Positions 30,490 to 37,804 of a stretch of DNA of 64,000 nucleotides are shown piece by piece (position 1 is the stretch's first letter; the number at the start of each line of letters is the position of its first letter). The translations under genes and the position numbers were made by a program. The notes under the pieces were generated by a model, which saw nothing but the letters and a program-made list of their open reading frames with translations, did not search any database and was not told the DNA's origin. Source of the stretch: a virus; IMG/VR virus record IMGVR_UViG_3300044971_002537, positions 75,855 through 139,854 of that record; one strand, written 5' to 3'.

Positions 30490-30738
30490 ATGGGAAACGG
30501 GGCAGTACAACTTTATCAGGCGGTGCGGAAACGCATCATGACAACAATGATTGGGGCTCTTGCAAGTTTGGAAGAGTTCAAAGAAATTTTTGAGGAGGAT
30601 GAATATGAAGGACTAAGAAAAGACATTTTGGACAAGGGCCATTTTCAGATCAGGGAATTGGAACGGGATTTAGACGGGTACGATATCAAATACAAGACAG
30701 TTTACTTTATGCCACTTAGGAGAGATCATGGAAAATAG
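30490..30738 (+). CDS. Small hypothetical protein in the chaperone region
   Basis: GAGG RBS; 82 aa, helical. Confidence 0.6.
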   Translation: MGNGAVQLYQAVRKRIMTTMIGALASLEEFKEIFEEDEYEGLRKDILDKGHFQIRELERDLDGYDIKYKTVYFMPLRRDHGK

Positions 30739-31510
30739 ATTCACAGTTGGGGAAAAAGATTATTTTATCAAGCTTACCCCACAAGCCGTTGCAGAAGGAA
30801 AAAAGGCCCATAATAGAGCCTTTAGGGAAGCTATTGATGATGGGGCACTTCTTAAGAAGAGCCTCATGAACCATATGCGAGAACAGGGCGTATGGAATGA
30901 CAGCAAAGAGGAAAACTATAAACAATTCATCAAAGAAATTGGTGAACTTGAATATAAGTTGTCTTCTGGAAAAATGAAAGTTAGTGAGGGTAAAACTCTT
31001 GCAATTCAACTTTCTAAAAAGCGTGCAGAATTTAGATCTCTTATTTCTGAGCGTAATCAGATGGAGGCAAATTCTGTCGAGGCCCAAGCAGATAACGCTA
31101 GATTCAATGCCCTTTTGGCAAAATCTATCTTTGATTATGACACTCAGAAATTAGTCTATGATTCTGTAGAGTCTTATGTCGAAAAGGGCTCTGACGAGCT
31201 AGGCATTGCACTCGCAGAAAAGTTTGCGAATTTTATCTACGGTGTAGACGAGAAATATGAAGATTCATTGGTAGAAAACAAGTTTTTGAAGCGATTCAAG
31301 CTTGTCAATGAATCTGGCCATTTCATCGATAAAGCTGGTCGCCTAGTCGATATCGATGGGCGTCAAGTCGACGAAGATGGATATAGGCTCGACAAGGACG
31401 GAAAGAGGATTGACCTAAATGGTAATCCGATAGGACTAAATATAGAAGATGCCGAGTTTGAGGATGATTTTAACTGTGATCCTGCACCTACGGAACCTGT
31501 AGAAGCTTAG
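30728..31510 (+). CDS. Putative tail assembly chaperone
   Basis: Directly upstream of the tape measure; coiled coil plus C-terminal (D/N)xxG-xx-(V/I/L) turn repeats. Confidence 0.55.
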   Translation: MENRFTVGEKDYFIKLTPQAVAEGKKAHNRAFREAIDDGALLKKSLMNHMREQGVWNDSKEENYKQFIKEIGELEYKLSSGKMKVSEGKTLAIQLSKKRAEFRSLISERNQMEANSVEAQADNARFNALLAKSIFDYDTQKLVYDSVESYVEKGSDELGIALAEKFANFIYGVDEKYEDSLVENKFLKRFKLVNESGHFIDKAGRLVDIDGRQVDEDGYRLDKDGKRIDLNGNPIGLNIEDAEFEDDFNCDPAPTEPVEA

Positions 31511-31531: not shown

Positions 31532-34500
31532 ATGGCCCTTTACGACATATCTGCTAGGTTAGTACTAGAAAATGTAGATAGCTCTTCTGTCGACAGGGCC
31601 ATTTCTAATATAAACTCACGCCTAGAAAAAGGCACTAGGACAGCTAAAACCTTTTCTGAGACTATAACCCTTAAAGGAATAAATTTAGCTGCTTACACTG
31701 CACTCAGCGGGGTAATGGTTAGACTTGCTTCTTTTGTATCTAGTGCTACAAATGATGCTATTAAGTTTGATAAAGAATTAGCTAAATTAGCTCAAACAGT
31801 AGGAGTTAGTAATCAGGACATAAAACAACATTCTGAGTCTATTAGAAATATGTCTGTTGCTTATGGTCTATCCGCCCCAAAAATCGCAGAGACTATAAGA
31901 GTTCTGGCCCAAGCCGGTTATTCTCTAAGAGAAGCTAAAGCTGCTGCTGATGAATTAGCCAAAACAACATTGTTAGCCTCATTTGAGAGCATAGCAAACA
32001 CTACAGAAGGTTTGATTGCTATCAACAAGCAGTTCACTGAGACTGTTGGGCAGTCTGCGAGAGTTCTTTCTTTACTGAATGTGGTTGCTAAGAAGTACGC
32101 TGTTGAATCTGATGACTTGGTCGATGCGGCCAAGCGGGCGGGCGGTGTTTTTGCGGCAACTGGTGGGTCTTTAGAAGAACTTGTGACTATTTACACAACA
32201 GTCAGAGATACTACCAGAGAAAGCTCTGAGACTATCGCGACGGGTCTTAGAACAATCTTCTCTCGTCTGCAGCGGCCTAAAACGATTGACTACCTACGCC
32301 AATTTGGCATAGAGCTTACAGACCTTAAAGGGAACTTCATTGGTAACTATGAAGCCATTCTTGAAATTCAGAAGGGGATACAAAGAGCCAATATTCAGCC
32401 CGGATCTATCCAGTTCGCTGAAATAGTTGAACAGCTTGGTGGTGTTTTGCAGCAGTCGAGAGTCATTCCTCTTTTGACTCAAGGTGCCAAGATGCAGAGG
32501 ATTTATGCAGATGCTCAGAATGCTGCCTCTGAGACTGCTGCCGACTTGGCCAAGGCTCAAGAGACATTAGCTTTTAAGATAACTCAAACTCAGCAGAACT
32601 TTTCAAAGCTGATTGGGGATATCATGGATACTGCCTCCTTTAAAGCTATGGTCTCTGTGGTTTTGTCTTTGACTAATGCATTCATCGGGTTCGCTGATTC
32701 TATCAAGGAGCTTATTCCACTTATAGCTACTTTGGGGGCAATTAAGTTAGCAAGATCAGCTTTTCAGGTGTTGCCGGGTTCTAGTTTTGGTAGTATGAGG
32801 ACTCCTATCAAGAGAGCAAGAGGTGGGTTTGTTCCCGGTAGCGGGAGTGGGGACACTGTACCGGCTATGTTGGAGCCCGGCGAATTCGTTATCAGGAAGA
32901 GTGCGGCTCAGGCGATGGGGGCTGACGCTTTGCATGGGATCAATAAATATGGCTTTGGGGGCACAGTAGAGAAATTAAGCGATTCTTATAAGAGCATTAA
33001 AACCCTTAAAGGCTTTAAAGATTCTTCAGGTAATATTAGTGCTCTAGCTAAAAGAAAAATGAATTATACGGCTAATTTTAAAAACGTAATACCAAATCAG
33101 AAAGATATTGAGCTATTCCATAAATTGAGTGGCCCGTATGGAAAAAGATTTGAGCAGGTTCTATCTAAGAGTAGAAGATTTAAAACTGGTCGGCCATCTA
33201 CTAATCCATATGCATATGTAGATTTTCCATATTCTCCCGGAGGTGCTTCTGAAGCTAAATTCATGAAGGAGGGAACCACGTATAGTGATGATGATAATAT
33301 AAAGGGGGCAACACATGCAGGTATTGCTGCGAAGGCCCTATTATTATCTGCTTCTAATAACGCGAACAGAAGAATACGAGGAATGGAGATTAGGCAGAAG
33401 GATCTTAGTCCAAAATCTGTTACTACGTATGTAACCGATCCAGATTTATGGACGATGAAGCGGAAAAAGAAAGTGGGTATAAGAAGGGCTACTGGTGGTG
33501 GAATTTCTGGTACAGATACAGTGCCAGCACTGCTTACTCCCGGCGAGTTTGTCGTTAACAAGAAGTCCGCACAAGCATTTGGTTATGGAAATCTCCATAA
33601 GGTCAATAAATATGCTAAGGGAGGAACTGTTTCTGGTATACAGAGATTTTTTGAAGGTGGCGTTGCTGAAAAAGATGTTGTTAGAGCGCAAGGAAATGTG
33701 ATAAAAGACCTTGAGCATGCTAGTAGGGTCTTTACAGGTGTGCTAGAGTTGATGCCCGAAACTCTCCAAAACAGTATATTGAGCACATTCAAAGGCATTG
33801 AGAATGTTCAAGCTGGTGCATCGCCCCAACTTGGAAGCTCAAAAGCTTTTGGAGAAGGCACTCGGGGTAGAGCTACAGTTGGAGATAGTGCATCTTCTAT
33901 AGGCTTACAGATTCAGGGAGCAAAAACAAGTGCTACTGAAGAGACTGTTGTGCATGAGGCTACGCACCTAGGTGATGCAGCACTTGGAGCAGCTAGGGCC
34001 AACAAGGAGGGCTATGCAGGACCCAAATTAGCTAGTCAGCAAGAAGGAACATTTCAATTTGATGTGGTGGAAAAGGTAAAGCCAATAATGCAGGCCGCTA
34101 TGGAAGCTGCTGGACATTCTGCTGAAAATATTGAAAAATACTTAGCCAAAAATGAAGAACTATTTGCTGAATTTGCTGCGAAGGCCACTCCAGAAGTAAG
34201 AAAAATTTTATTTAGCACTACAGATGCCGCCATCGGTATGGCCGAGTTAAGAAGCCACCTAGAAAAAGCTGGAAGCACTTATGCTGGTCTTGAGGCTTCA
34301 GATATAGATCTAAGGCCATATAAATCGCAAGAAGTAAGACAAGATGAAAATTTAGCTATTACAGCATTAAATTCCCCTGTTAATAAAACTTCATCTGTCA
34401 GCAGCAGACCTTTGGCTAAAGAATTTGGACCTGAGATAGGACGGCTTGGTAAATCTGTTTCAGAGGAACAGACTAAGCTAAAGGCTATACAGGAACAAAA

Positions 34501-37500
34501 GGCACAAGTTTCAACTAGGCCGGGAGAATCTTCCAAGGAATTAGGTAAGCTTAATGAGGCAGAAGCAAAATCAATTGAGACAATTGATAAACTTAATAAA
34601 GAAAGAGATGCATTACGTTCTGTAATCATTGAAGAGAAAAATAATCTAACTAAGGGACTAAAGTCCGGAACAGCTTCTACTTTTAGGGAATCTGTTCCAT
34701 TAGCACCTGCTGTTAATAAGCCAGTCGTGCCCCCTAATCCAGCTATGGCTGCGTTTGCTAAAATGGCTCAGTCCGGTCCGAATGGCCCTAACGGTCCGAA
34801 TGGCCCAAATGGCCCGAAAGATAATAGTACAGTTGAAAAAGAAATAGAAGAAAGGGGTAAGAATTTAACTGGAACATTCTCTACATTGGCTTTGGTTGTA
34901 TCTGGAGTCGCTTCTCAATATGTAGATCAAGAAACAGCAACTGGTAGAGCAATTGGAGGAATATTAGATTTTGTGTCTGTTCTTTCTGCTGCTCAGCTTA
35001 CTTTGTCTCAATTCGGCATAGATCTTGACCCAAAAAAGATTTTTGATATTGGAAAAGACCTATTTACCGGAAAAGGTGCTAAATTAGCTGAACAAGTAAC
35101 TGGTGGGGCGAGACAAGTTGGGAAAAGCGTGTTTGGAGCTGGTAAATATGTACAGGGGATTGGTGGCAAACTTGGCCAAGGGGTAGTTGGAAAGGCCGTC
35201 ACTGGATTAGGATCACAACTTCAAACAGTAGGTGTTGGAGTTGGATCTAAAACTGCTTCTGCTGCTATTGGTACTAAGGTTGCATCTGCCGCTACTGCAG
35301 CAGCTCCATTTGTAATCGCAGGAGCATCTGTTCTAGCATTCGGGAAAGGCTTAGATTATCTACTTGGCAGAGAGCAAGAGGCTGCTAAAGCTATTGAAGA
35401 AGGCAATATAGCAAAAGCTGGAGAGACGGCAGTATCTGTTCAGGCTCAAAATGATCTTACGGCTCTGGCTACTGGGGCCGCAGTAGTGGCGACAGCATTT
35501 GGAGGCCCGTTAGTGGGTGCTGCTGTTGGCGTAGCTGTAAAACTTGCTGGGTTTATACCGGGTGTAGAATATGCTATTGGGGGCCTTAGAAATTTAGGAG
35601 CTGAGCTTGGACTACTAGAATCAACGACATCTATAGCTGCTAAGGCTCAATTTGAAGCTGCAAAAAAGAACGCCGAGAAAACAAGAGAAAAGGGACAAGA
35701 GCGACTTACAAAGCTTTCCTCAAAAGTAAAAGACAAAGAATCGGCAGATAAGGTTTTAAATAGTTCTGAGACTAAAGCAAATGTAGCTGCCGCTATCAAG
35801 GTTGCAAATGAAGCAAAAGCAGTAATTGCAGAAAACGATAAAGCGAATGTAAAAGATGCTTCAAATCTATCATATATAAAATCGTCTTCTAGAGCGGCCA
35901 GTGGTGCCGGTGGGCCGCTTGCTGGAAGTCTTGTAAAATTTTTAGGTAGCTTTGTTGCTTCAGAAGAAGAGACTAAAGCGAGAGATGAAGATAGTACAAA
36001 AAGGAAACAGGAAAGCCAAGCTGAGGCTAAAAAAAGTTTAGAACTTATTATGCCCGCTATTGATTTCAAGATGGGTGAATCTGCTGATGCTGGTAAGGGT
36101 TGGACAGAATTTTTAGATAGCTTAGGAGAAAATAAAGCACTTGTTTTAGCTTCTGGAGAAGCTACTAATTTACAAGAAAAATTTGATGAGTTAGCAATTG
36201 CTGCAAAAACCGAAGCCGCTATAAGGGCTGTACTAAATGCACAGATGCAAAAACAACTTATTACTACTACCGGGATTGCTGAAGCTAATAAAAAAGCAAT
36301 TGCCGCATCTGAACTTGGAAACGTAGTCTCTGGTTTAGCTTCTGATAGCTTTAGGGGCTCTTCTCTTTCTTCAGCCGCTTCTAGTGAAGACATAGATAAG
36401 CAATCTAGGGCTGCTGAGGCACTAGGAATAAAGGGCTATAAAGAAAATGTTTCTGCGGTCACAAAAGGCAAGTCAGAGATGACTAAGCTAGAAACCGCTT
36501 TTGCTACTGCAACTCCCGAGAAAAGACAGGCAGCTCAAGACGCTATAACAGCTAAAAAGAAAGAAATAATTAATGCGACTGGTGGAGATGCTACTGGACT
36601 AGAAGGTGAAGCTCTTGATAAGGCCTATGAATCTACCATTGAAGGTTCAGATAAGCTTAAAAACAGTCTAATAGAAGCCGCTAAGAACACAGAAACTGCA
36701 ATTAATTCATACATAGATAGTGTATCGCGAGCTTCTCAAGCTCAGACAGCATACAATGAGGCAGTATTTAATAATGCTCAAGCTGCTCAGAATAGACAGA
36801 AAGATTTACAATCATTCAAGGTTGGTGGATCTACTATATCTGAAATTAGAGATAGAAAATCGGCTATAAGCACTAATGACGCTAGGGCGAATGCTTCTAG
36901 ATTAAATTTTGTAGGAACATCAAGCAGGCTTGCTTCTACAGGAATTAAAATAGCACAAACGCAAGCTCAAGGAAATATAGTCAGTCCAGAGCTTGCTAAC
37001 ACGTTTGCTGCCCTACAAATAAAAGCTAAGGAACAGGCAGATGCTATAGGGCTAGAAACTAAAAATAGGCAAGCTCTTATAGAGGCAATAAAAGAAGAGA
37101 TGGAGATTGAAAAGAATCGCGGTCAAACATTTGAGGATTTGAATCTTGCTCTCAGCGGAGGACTTGGAAAGCAAGCGAAGAAGGAGGCAGAAAAACAGGT
37201 TAAGGCAATCAGCAGGGTTGAAGAAATTAGAAAGACCCAAGGAGACGAAGCTGCAAATGCCCAACTCGGTAAAGAAATAGACCGGGGTACTCTAAATAGA
37301 CAGATGTACACTAGCGTAATCCAAACAGAAGAAAGCCAAAGATTTAATCAGAGTGCTTCTATGATGGGAGCTAATCGTTTTGAGAGTATAGCTGGTCCCG
37401 GAGCGATTACACAAGACTCAAGATCTATAGCTACTGGAAGAATGACAGAAAGACAAAAGCAGCTCCAAGGAGAAGCCACATCTCAAACTTCTCAAATAGA

Positions 37501-37804
37501 TAAAAATGAGAAGGCCCTTTTACAGGGGCAAGACGCCAGTCTCCAGTTATTAAAAGCGTCTGCTGATATATTTGGGAATTCTATAAAAGACATGAATACT
37601 GGATTAACTGGATTTAATAATGAGCTGAAAAATATTGTAACCTCTCTACAGAGTGGCTCTATAAGTATGAAATTAGATACCACTAATGTGGTAGTAGATA
37701 TTAGCTCTCCTGAAGGACTAGAGGCATTGTCAAAGCAGATGAGGCAAGAAATGAAGACATTGATAGCTGATCAACTATTAGCGCAGAAAACAGGAAGAGT
37801 ATAA
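31532..37804 (+). CDS. Tape measure protein with inserted accessory domains
   Basis: N-terminal TP901-type TMP core (FDKELAKLAQTVG, LAQAG, IATGLRTIFSRL); Ala/Gly-rich hydrophobic segments; long coiled coils; two GG..G.DTVPA.L.PGEFV motifs. Confidence 0.92.
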   Translation: MALYDISARLVLENVDSSSVDRAISNINSRLEKGTRTAKTFSETITLKGINLAAYTALSGVMVRLASFVSSATNDAIKFDKELAKLAQTVGVSNQDIKQHSESIRNMSVAYGLSAPKIAETIRVLAQAGYSLREAKAAADELAKTTLLASFESIANTTEGLIAINKQFTETVGQSARVLSLLNVVAKKYAVESDDLVDAAKRAGGVFAATGGSLEELVTIYTTVRDTTRESSETIATGLRTIFSRLQRPKTIDYLRQFGIELTDLKGNFIGNYEAILEIQKGIQRANIQPGSIQFAEIVEQLGGVLQQSRVIPLLTQGAKMQRIYADAQNAASETAADLAKAQETLAFKITQTQQNFSKLIGDIMDTASFKAMVSVVLSLTNAFIGFADSIKELIPLIATLGAIKLARSAFQVLPGSSFGSMRTPIKRARGGFVPGSGSGDTVPAMLEPGEFVIRKSAAQAMGADALHGINKYGFGGTVEKLSDSYKSIKTLKGFKDSSGNISALAKRKMNYTANFKNVIPNQKDIELFHKLSGPYGKRFEQVLSKSRRFKTGRPSTNPYAYVDFPYSPGGASEAKFMKEGTTYSDDDNIKGATHAGIAAKALLLSASNNANRRIRGMEIRQKDLSPKSVTTYVTDPDLWTMKRKKKVGIRRATGGGISGTDTVPALLTPGEFVVNKKSAQAFGYGNLHKVNKYAKGGTVSGIQRFFEGGVAEKDVVRAQGNVIKDLEHASRVFTGVLELMPETLQNSILSTFKGIENVQAGASPQLGSSKAFGEGTRGRATVGDSASSIGLQIQGAKTSATEETVVHEATHLGDAALGAARANKEGYAGPKLASQQEGTFQFDVVEKVKPIMQAAMEAAGHSAENIEKYLAKNEELFAEFAAKATPEVRKILFSTTDAAIGMAELRSHLEKAGSTYAGLEASDIDLRPYKSQEVRQDENLAITALNSPVNKTSSVSSRPLAKEFGPEIGRLGKSVSEEQTKLKAIQEQKAQVSTRPGESSKELGKLNEAEAKSIETIDKLNKERDALRSVIIEEKNNLTKGLKSGTASTFRESVPLAPAVNKPVVPPNPAMAAFAKMAQSGPNGPNGPNGPNGPKDNSTVEKEIEERGKNLTGTFSTLALVVSGVASQYVDQETATGRAIGGILDFVSVLSAAQLTLSQFGIDLDPKKIFDIGKDLFTGKGAKLAEQVTGGARQVGKSVFGAGKYVQGIGGKLGQGVVGKAVTGLGSQLQTVGVGVGSKTASAAIGTKVASAATAAAPFVIAGASVLAFGKGLDYLLGREQEAAKAIEEGNIAKAGETAVSVQAQNDLTALATGAAVVATAFGGPLVGAAVGVAVKLAGFIPGVEYAIGGLRNLGAELGLLESTTSIAAKAQFEAAKKNAEKTREKGQERLTKLSSKVKDKESADKVLNSSETKANVAAAIKVANEAKAVIAENDKANVKDASNLSYIKSSSRAASGAGGPLAGSLVKFLGSFVASEEETKARDEDSTKRKQESQAEAKKSLELIMPAIDFKMGESADAGKGWTEFLDSLGENKALVLASGEATNLQEKFDELAIAAKTEAAIRAVLNAQMQKQLITTTGIAEANKKAIAASELGNVVSGLASDSFRGSSLSSAASSEDIDKQSRAAEALGIKGYKENVSAVTKGKSEMTKLETAFATATPEKRQAAQDAITAKKKEIINATGGDATGLEGEALDKAYESTIEGSDKLKNSLIEAAKNTETAINSYIDSVSRASQAQTAYNEAVFNNAQAAQNRQKDLQSFKVGGSTISEIRDRKSAISTNDARANASRLNFVGTSSRLASTGIKIAQTQAQGNIVSPELANTFAALQIKAKEQADAIGLETKNRQALIEAIKEEMEIEKNRGQTFEDLNLALSGGLGKQAKKEAEKQVKAISRVEEIRKTQGDEAANAQLGKEIDRGTLNRQMYTSVIQTEESQRFNQSASMMGANRFESIAGPGAITQDSRSIATGRMTERQKQLQGEATSQTSQIDKNEKALLQGQDASLQLLKASADIFGNSIKDMNTGLTGFNNELKNIVTSLQSGSISMKLDTTNVVVDISSPEGLEALSKQMRQEMKTLIADQLLAQKTGRV
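34775..34819 (+). repeat. 9-nt tandem repeat encoding (GPN)4-GPK
   Basis: GGTCCGAAT GGCCCTAAC GGTCCGAAT GGCCCAAAT GGCCCGAAA. Confidence 0.85.

Follow-up and report, generated by a model that had tools for sequence, protein, structure and literature searches.

Analysis of a 64,000-nucleotide stretch of the IMG/VR virus record IMGVR_UViG_3300044971_002537 (the window) revealed a tape measure protein (TMP) built as a scaffold with exchangeable, conserved, enzyme-like globular inserts, the junctions of which lie at a joint of the type present in gpH, the TMP of phage lambda. The window's protein has two such inserts, a nuclease-like domain (domain A) and a zincin metallopeptidase-like domain (domain B), and each of them stands directly behind one copy of a repeated module of approximately 50 amino acids (aa). 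We consider it fairly probable that this is a modular TMP, whose two exchangeable enzyme-like domains are delivered into the host and act there, with the module serving both as joint and as crossover point. The elements on which the argument rests are listed below (positions are those of the window).

31532-37804, + strand: TMP gene, 2090 aa (P0001 in our protein set), matching PF10145, TIGR01760 and PHROG TMP families
32822-32968, + strand: motif copy 1, aa 431-479, GGFVPGSGSG-DTVPAMLEPGEFV...NKYGFGG, with low predicted local distance difference test score (pLDDT) in the monomer model
32969-33484, + strand: domain A, aa 480-651, PD-(D/E)xK nuclease-like cassette by model, fold matches and conservation
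33152-33154, 33221-33223, 33251-33253 and 33257-33259, + strand: E541, D564, E574 and K576, respectively, candidate catalytic residues of domain A
33485-33640, + strand: motif copy 2, aa 652-703, GGGISGT-DTVPALLTPGEFV...NKYAKGG, matching lambda gpH 754-784
33659-34321, + strand: domain B, aa 710-930, zincin metallopeptidase-like cassette by conservation, model and fold matches
33953-33976, 34139-34141 and 34157-34159, + strand: HExxHxxD (H808, E809, H812, D815), Y870 and E876, respectively, of domain B

By its sequence, the open reading frame (ORF) at 31532-37804 is a true TP901-type TMP of a poorly known phage lineage. It matched PF10145 (aa 102-286, E 6e-26, 92 bits against a cut-off of 33.2) and TIGR01760 (aa 66-403, E 6.5e-32, 110.9 bits against a cut-off of 28.8), as well as several PHROG tape-measure families. 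The ORF is very long, with small ORFs upstream and very large ORFs downstream. The TP901-type N-terminal core comprises aa 1-430, and the two inserted domains, each folding on its own in the models, follow after it.

The module is flanked by glycines and contains the element DTVPA(M/L)LxPGEFV and the core DTVPAMLTPGEFV. An initial annotation of this DNA had recognized its two copies, and the coordinates given there were all correct (copy 1 from 32822, G431; copy 2, 33494-33625; HEATH of domain B, 33953-33967, H808-H812; EELFAE downstream of it, 34154-34171, E875-E880). Aligned as 54-aa blocks, the copies are 57% identical (E 2e-19 for this single comparison). At the DNA level their identity is no more than 59%, most third codon positions differ, and the longest exact match spans 12 nucleotides (nt); a DNA-level repeat search found no direct repeat joining them and nothing else of relevance. 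This combination of protein and DNA identity shows that the copies are old and have been kept by selection at the protein level.

Relatives were collected by a search with aa 420-930, which yielded 2049 proteins; the best 120 of these, together with the window's TMP, made up the set of 121 that was analysed. All of the best 120 are giant TMPs (1570-3651 aa), and at least 510 IMG/VR loci encode relatives. The module was found in 118 of the 121 proteins, in 363 instances, with one to six per protein and 59 to 2418 residues between them. The first copy usually falls at aa 400-500, directly after the TP901 core, and in 57 proteins the last copy lies 100-200 aa from the C-terminus. The core of the module is nearly invariant across the 363 instances, in proteins that are otherwise 35-40% identical. 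Judged by this conservation, the module is more than a passive linker and has a function of its own in the protein. It had been interpreted earlier as a conserved linker or a recombination point: the near-invariant core speaks against a merely passive linker, and a recombination point agrees with the junctions described below.

The motif is also present in 250 records of cultured phages, nearly all within annotated TMPs, the carriers being Gordonia, Mycobacterium, Streptomyces, Nodularia, Burkholderia and Vibrio phages. Among cultured phages megablast gave no match, and tblastn matched the motif only, not domain A or B. The motif was also seen in lysozyme- or endolysin-annotated proteins of Synechococcus phage S-SCSM1 (MK867354.2, 164172-164402) and Streptomyces phage VWB (NC_005345.2, 35787-35951) and in a few uncharacterised cyanomyovirus proteins, near 7.7 kb. 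Its occurrence thus extends, in a few cases, beyond annotated TMPs.

Two enzyme-like domains behind the module

Besides the window's TMP, 16 relatives in the set have domain A, which makes 17 proteins altogether. When 1.84 billion representatives were scanned in full with HMMER, 12 matches resulted, almost all of them proteins of TMP length. The initial annotation had likened this inter-motif segment to a restriction-endonuclease fold on the basis of an E...D...ExK pattern, and the residues in question (E541, D564, E574 and K576) proved to be invariant or present in at least 90% of the homologue rows. An AlphaFold2 model, built with 25 alignment rows, is a compact alpha/beta domain with core pLDDT above 90. 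In the model E541 lies on a helix (106-116, model numbering), D564 precedes a strand (135-138) and E574-x-K576 lies on a strand (141-146), which reproduces the E...D...(D/E)xK helix/strand/strand pattern of the PD-(D/E)xK superfamily.

The best row in an exhaustive structural alignment of domain A was FAN1, with a weak Z of 4.0 (87 residues aligned with a root-mean-square deviation, rmsd, of 3.9). Nearly every row at Z >= 2 was a PD-(D/E)xK nuclease: FAN1/VRR-NUC, Hjc, NucS, CdiA-CT and many type II restriction enzymes. Domain A resembles VRR-NUC/FAN1, Hjc and the type II restriction endonucleases in having the E on a helix, the D at a strand start and ExK on the next strand, but differs from them in that Z is at most 4.0 and that other searches failed to connect it with any of them. 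Foldseek against the PDB returned nothing (E above 1), there was no relevant Pfam or NCBIfam match at E <= 10, no PDB sequence and no ESM Atlas match, and a BFVD search with the model gave motif-level TMP matches only. A whole-alignment profile run against the PDB gave only coiled-coil noise. Taking model and conserved residues together, domain A is quite likely a divergent PD-(D/E)xK domain; the earlier comparison is supported, in that the segment is a compact domain with conserved E/D/ExK, albeit with weak fold scores.

Domain B occurs in 50 of the 121 proteins. The 47 rows of an alignment all have H808, E809, H812, D815, S835, Q842, E876 and D924, and at least 90% of them have Y870, F878 and A879. 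All 50 homologues have HExxHxxD, mostly with HETGH, of which the HEATH in the window is a rare variant. A conserved Tyr and an invariant Glu follow 60-70 residues after HExxHxxD, and E876 is presumably the third zinc ligand. With HExxH on a helix and a Glu downstream, the domain has the hallmarks of a gluzincin.

The model of domain B also has core pLDDT above 90. In the VIA/exhaustive alignment its best match was the catalytic domain of lethal factor (Z 8.3, rmsd 3.8 over 149 residues), and further matches were PPEP-2 (Z 7.2), PPEP-3 (6.1) and entry 3dl1 (5.2). Entry 3dl1 is titled only 'putative metal-dependent hydrolase', and we take it to be the MtfA peptidase (M90). Most of the top 50 were zincins, and the predicted fold is that of a zincin. 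The zincin signature read earlier from the sequence is supported by the invariant HExxH, the invariant Glu in the ELFA stretch downstream and the modelled fold. Foldseek against the PDB gave weak rows (E >= 0.14), mainly zincins. There was no Pfam family at E <= 10 and no NCBIfam or PDB sequence match, and the ESM Atlas gave weak leads only: ATLF (0.87), LPD1 and LPD23 (at most 0.90). Peptidases of phage polyvalent proteins had been mentioned earlier in connection with this motif, but membership in PF18818 (MPTase-PolyVal) was not borne out, there being no profile match in Pfam at E <= 10. A length-restricted search for domain B as a separate protein gave one 156-aa fragment; otherwise it was found only embedded in TMPs.

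The best structural matches of domain B are thus the lethal factor catalytic domain and the Pro-Pro endopeptidases (MEROPS M34), and 3dl1. In M34 the spacing from Tyr to Glu is six residues, whereas Y870 and E876 of domain B are spaced by five, and there is no match to M34 at the sequence level. We conclude from alignment and model that domain B is a conserved zincin, probably active, closest in shape to M34 and with no match to an M34 sequence family. Modelled separately, as the initial annotation had proposed, both segments are predicted to be globular with pLDDT above 90, neither plain helical TMP nor disordered.

A Pro-rich linker often follows domain B; in the window's TMP a Pro-Pro is found at aa 1067, about 140 aa past the zincin. 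In 35 of the 50 TMPs with domain B a Pro-Pro follows it within 260 aa, compared with 20% of background windows, an enrichment that is no proof because the sequences are related. The observation is of interest since the zincin resembles Pro-Pro endopeptidases.

Exchange of cassettes among related tape measure proteins

The nearest relative is in IMGVR_UViG_3300042556_001858 (loci L001/L006), and its TMP is identical to P0002 of the protein set. Single-sequence locus searches found this one close relative only. Comparison of the two DNAs defined two further features:

32822-33549, + strand: 728-nt tract that differs from the nearest relative by 12 mismatches, with flanks approximately 80% identical
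33615, + strand: end of DNA homology with the nearest relative, at codon ~695, in the last residues of motif 2

Outside the cassette the nucleotide identity is 81.7% in the upstream genes and 79.1% in TMP aa 1-430. Within the cassette it amounts to 93.9% in motif 1, 99.4% in domain A (516 nt) and 90.1% in motif 2, and both ends of the near-identical tract lie inside motif copies. Since the near-identity extends to synonymous sites, it points to recent transfer and not to purifying selection. At 33615 all homology is lost, and the TMP of the relative has no domain B. The proteins reflect the same structure: P0002 is 88% identical to the window's TMP over aa 1-709, lacks aa 710-1062 and is approximately 37% identical beyond.

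A second junction was seen between L033 and L041/L042, which are 95.5% identical until 93 nt past the Asp codon of the motif and then unrelated for approximately 1.9 kb. In 81 loci, DNA homology most often stops on its 3′ side 75-125 nt past the Asp codon, and 13% of all such 3′ ends fall within the motif block, against 4.7% at random.

The initial annotation had proposed that the segments are interchangeable and that they should vary among relatives while their flanks are conserved. This is what the comparison of related TMPs revealed; the inter-motif content is not identical across relatives. In P0004 and P0047, whose N-terminal parts are 65-68% identical to that of the window's TMP, the segment between the first two motifs cannot be aligned with the window's cassette, and P0014 has a single motif with domain B directly behind it. 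In 112 TMPs, at least 19 cassette families unrelated to one another occupy the slot after motif 1. Domains A and B assort independently: of the 121 TMPs, 5 have both, 12 have A alone, 45 have B alone and 59 have neither. On these sequence comparisons, the motif bounds exchangeable modules, and the recombination junctions fall within it or at its C-terminal edge.

Two related TMPs, P0019 and P0096, carry a Pfam ADP-ribosyltransferase exoenzyme domain (PF03496), and P0110 is named 'glutaredoxin 2' by one source. Other enzyme classes therefore seem to occupy cassette slots.

The lambda joint and the proposed role of the cassettes

Residues 754-784 of lambda gpH match motif copy 2 (BLASTP E 4e-5). 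A hidden Markov model (HMM) of the motif scored 18.5 bits on gpH, against at most 5.4 for 2000 shuffles. Significant similarity is limited to the C-terminal half of the module (GEFV...GG); by eye the correspondence extends, less clearly, back to residue 733 (GGF.G.G....PA). No Pfam model covers the module, and PF09718 sits at gpH 627-701. Lambda gpH is cut in a Gly-rich region to give gpH* and a fragment of approximately 14 kDa, gpHC, and neither the exact site nor the protease has been identified (PMC12617516). Residues 754-784 come just after the Gly-rich cut region, within the gpHC part that is unresolved in the virion (cf. PMC12617516).

Like the window's TMP, gpH has the motif GEFV..K.A....G...L......GG after a Gly-rich stretch, and like many of the relatives it has one copy 100-200 aa from the C-terminus. 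It differs from the window's TMP in its single copy, the lack of an embedded enzyme domain, the presence of PF06791 instead of PF10145 and the divergence of the DTVPAML half of the motif, whereas the window's TMP has no copy near its C-terminus. The position of the joint next to lambda's cut region suggests, by analogy, a role in processing or assembly.

Enzyme-like segments in TMPs have precedents. In T5 pb2 a cut separates the hydrophobic stretch from a muralytic metallopeptidase motif, and refolding has been proposed (bioRxiv 10.1101/2022.09.20.507954); the TMP of mycobacteriophage TM4 has an embedded muralytic motif (PMC1796659). Both resemble the window's TMP in carrying an enzyme-like segment, that of T5 being separated by cleavage and thought to act after ejection and refolding. 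In contrast, pb2 lacks the motif, as determined by the motif HMM search, and the window's enzymes are nuclease-like and lethal-factor/PPEP-like, not known cell-wall hydrolases. Thermus phage P23-45 gp96, a TMP of 5002 aa, has a working N-terminal virion RNA polymerase (PMC10770324). It is a giant TMP with an N-terminal, cytoplasm-acting enzyme delivered with the DNA, and delivery is what we propose for the window's TMP as well, but the enzyme is a different one and that paper describes no cassette swapping or bounding motif. For TMP-related modular effectors of the actinobacterial contractile injection systems (Sle1), a TMP-derived scaffold with exchangeable functional domains is likewise reported (PMC13277306). 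Effectors of this type are cargo of tail-like particles, whereas the window's TMP is the phage's own ruler.

Cell-wall hydrolase motifs had thus been described in TMPs before, and an RNA polymerase in one TMP. A limited, non-exhaustive full-text search of the literature found no paper on the motif as a cassette boundary and none on nuclease-like or lethal-factor-like TMP cassettes. What is new is the presence in a TMP of cassettes that, by their models, are nuclease-like and lethal-factor-like protease domains, the direct evidence that phages exchange such cassettes with one another at a defined, conserved joint, and the connection of this joint with the part of gpH in which lambda cleaves it.

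TMPs exit the tail ahead of the DNA. According to the reading that we favour, domains A and B would be active enzymes; each of their candidate catalytic residues is either invariant across 25 to 47 homologues or found in no fewer than 90% of the rows. While inside the tail lumen the inserts would be extended or metastable, and they would exit as part of the TMP, before the DNA. After refolding, domain A would act on host nucleic acid, and domain B on the host envelope or on other host proteins. The module would be kept for a job in the protein, most likely as a flexible joint tied to processing or assembly of the TMP, as in lambda. Since no other DNA is conserved between unrelated cassettes, it would also be the place at which homologous recombination crosses over.

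Several observations weigh against this reading. Three or six folded domains of 20-25 kDa would hardly fit side by side in the tail lumen, and unfolding and refolding therefore have to be assumed. The fold matches of domain A are weak (Z <= 4.0) with an empty Foldseek result, and no sequence family matches domain A or B. The module has low pLDDT in both monomer models, with short helices only in its second half, and the window's TMP is without the C-terminal copy that roughly half of the relatives possess. Because the motif is a conserved island, part of the clustering of homology ends there is expected, and only two recent junctions were observed directly.

The initial annotation had suggested that the cassettes are possibly released by the peptidase. 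Every motif copy would then be a cut made by the zincin, and the polyprotein would yield a free core, a nuclease, and a zincin together with the remaining ruler. Such processing would be in keeping with the cut of lambda gpH in the Gly-rich region just upstream of its motif copy, with the cleavage of T5 pb2, which frees an enzyme-bearing fragment, with the Gly flanks and low pLDDT of the motif, and with the position of the zincin, which in 41 of 50 TMPs immediately follows a motif copy. The distribution of copies speaks against it: the 71 TMPs without zincin average 3.58 motif copies, the 50 with zincin 2.18. Lambda gpH is cleaved near its motif and has no peptidase domain; its exact cut site is unmapped, hence no fixed relation to the motif is established, and pb2, though cleaved, lacks the motif. 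Given the copy numbers and the absence of a zincin from gpH, we judged it unlikely that the zincin is the protease which cuts at the motif; the proposed release by the peptidase finds no support in these results, and we regard the polyprotein explanation as a whole as quite improbable.

It is also possible, though rather unlikely, that the cassettes belong to the injection machinery itself. The zincin would open the envelope by acting on peptidoglycan or envelope proteins, and the nuclease-like domain would bind the leading DNA end or be a regulated nickase. The N-terminal half of a TMP is nearest to the head and the leading DNA end, and it is in this half that the cassettes lie. Muralytic TMP domains are moreover established (PMC1796659; bioRxiv 10.1101/2022.09.20.507954), and envelope opening has been proposed for T5 pb2C and the TM4 TMP. 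On the other hand, the closest folds of domain B are protein endopeptidases (lethal factor, PPEP) and not known cell-wall peptidases, and the full E/D/ExK set of domain A is conserved, more than binding alone would need. The cassettes also assort independently and are often absent (neither is present in 59 of the 121 proteins), from which it follows that they are accessory and not core to injection. A purely mechanical role, with the inserts being decayed passengers that lengthen the ruler and retain a residual likeness to enzymes, appears very unlikely. The length of a TMP sets the length of the tail, and the lack of any sequence family matching either domain would fit such decay. Both segments, however, are confidently predicted to be globular (pLDDT above 90) and not helical ruler, and the catalytic-type residues are invariant or at least 90% conserved in sequences that are 37-70% identical to the window's segment.

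Delivery of the enzymes, as in the reading that we favour, would make the TMP a general platform with which large aquatic phages inject proteins, reconfigurable and existing in thousands of variants, with relevance to host takeover, to defence and counter-defence and to engineered protein delivery by phage tails. Through gpH 754-784, the joint also gives a concrete starting point for finding where and how gpH is processed. A bolder idea, which we hold to be doubtful, is that every module copy is a joint for both cutting and recombination: it would be cleaved in tail maturation, as occurs beside the copy in lambda gpH, the giant TMPs would be polyproteins releasing free enzymes into the host (a nuclease and a lethal-factor-like protease in the window's TMP), and the same conserved codons would let phages shuffle their payloads. 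If true, it would locate and explain the long-unsolved cleavage of gpH to gpH*.

Gene neighbourhood and base composition

The source virus record has a length of 74.6 kb and is approximately 48% complete by CheckV. Two further features flank the cassette-bearing part of the gene or lie upstream of it:

30490-31510, + strand: two overlapping small ORFs directly upstream of the TMP gene, in the position of tail assembly chaperones (by position only)
34730-34818, + strand: Pro-rich linker with Pro-Pro (aa 1067-1068), followed by a PNG tandem repeat at 34774-34818 (DNA repeat search and Pro-Pro survey)

The upstream pair consists of an 82-aa ORF, overlapped over 11 nt by a 260-aa ORF, and occupies the usual place of tail assembly chaperones. 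Relative to the 82-aa ORF, the 260-aa ORF is in the +1 frame, whereas the usual chaperone frameshift is -1, and it has its own ATG. Neither of the two small ORFs had a significant family match. Ten neighbouring ORFs that were tested, including those of 934, 1186 and 1862 aa, had no PHROG and no significant Pfam match; the lineage is very poorly annotated.

The shift to AT-rich DNA after the first motif, which had been noticed earlier, was confirmed by the GC content: 0.571 in motif 1 and 0.368 in the inter-motif domain, compared with 0.418 for the TMP gene and 0.437 for the window. The inter-motif domain is the lowest-GC stretch of the gene, yet no extreme outlier, and its lysine-rich composition may account for part of the low value.

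Gly/Ala-rich hydrophobic stretches follow after the cassettes at 34850-35620 (about aa 1105-1365). By analogy with proposals for lambda gpH and T5 pb2, they may represent the membrane-inserting part of the TMP.

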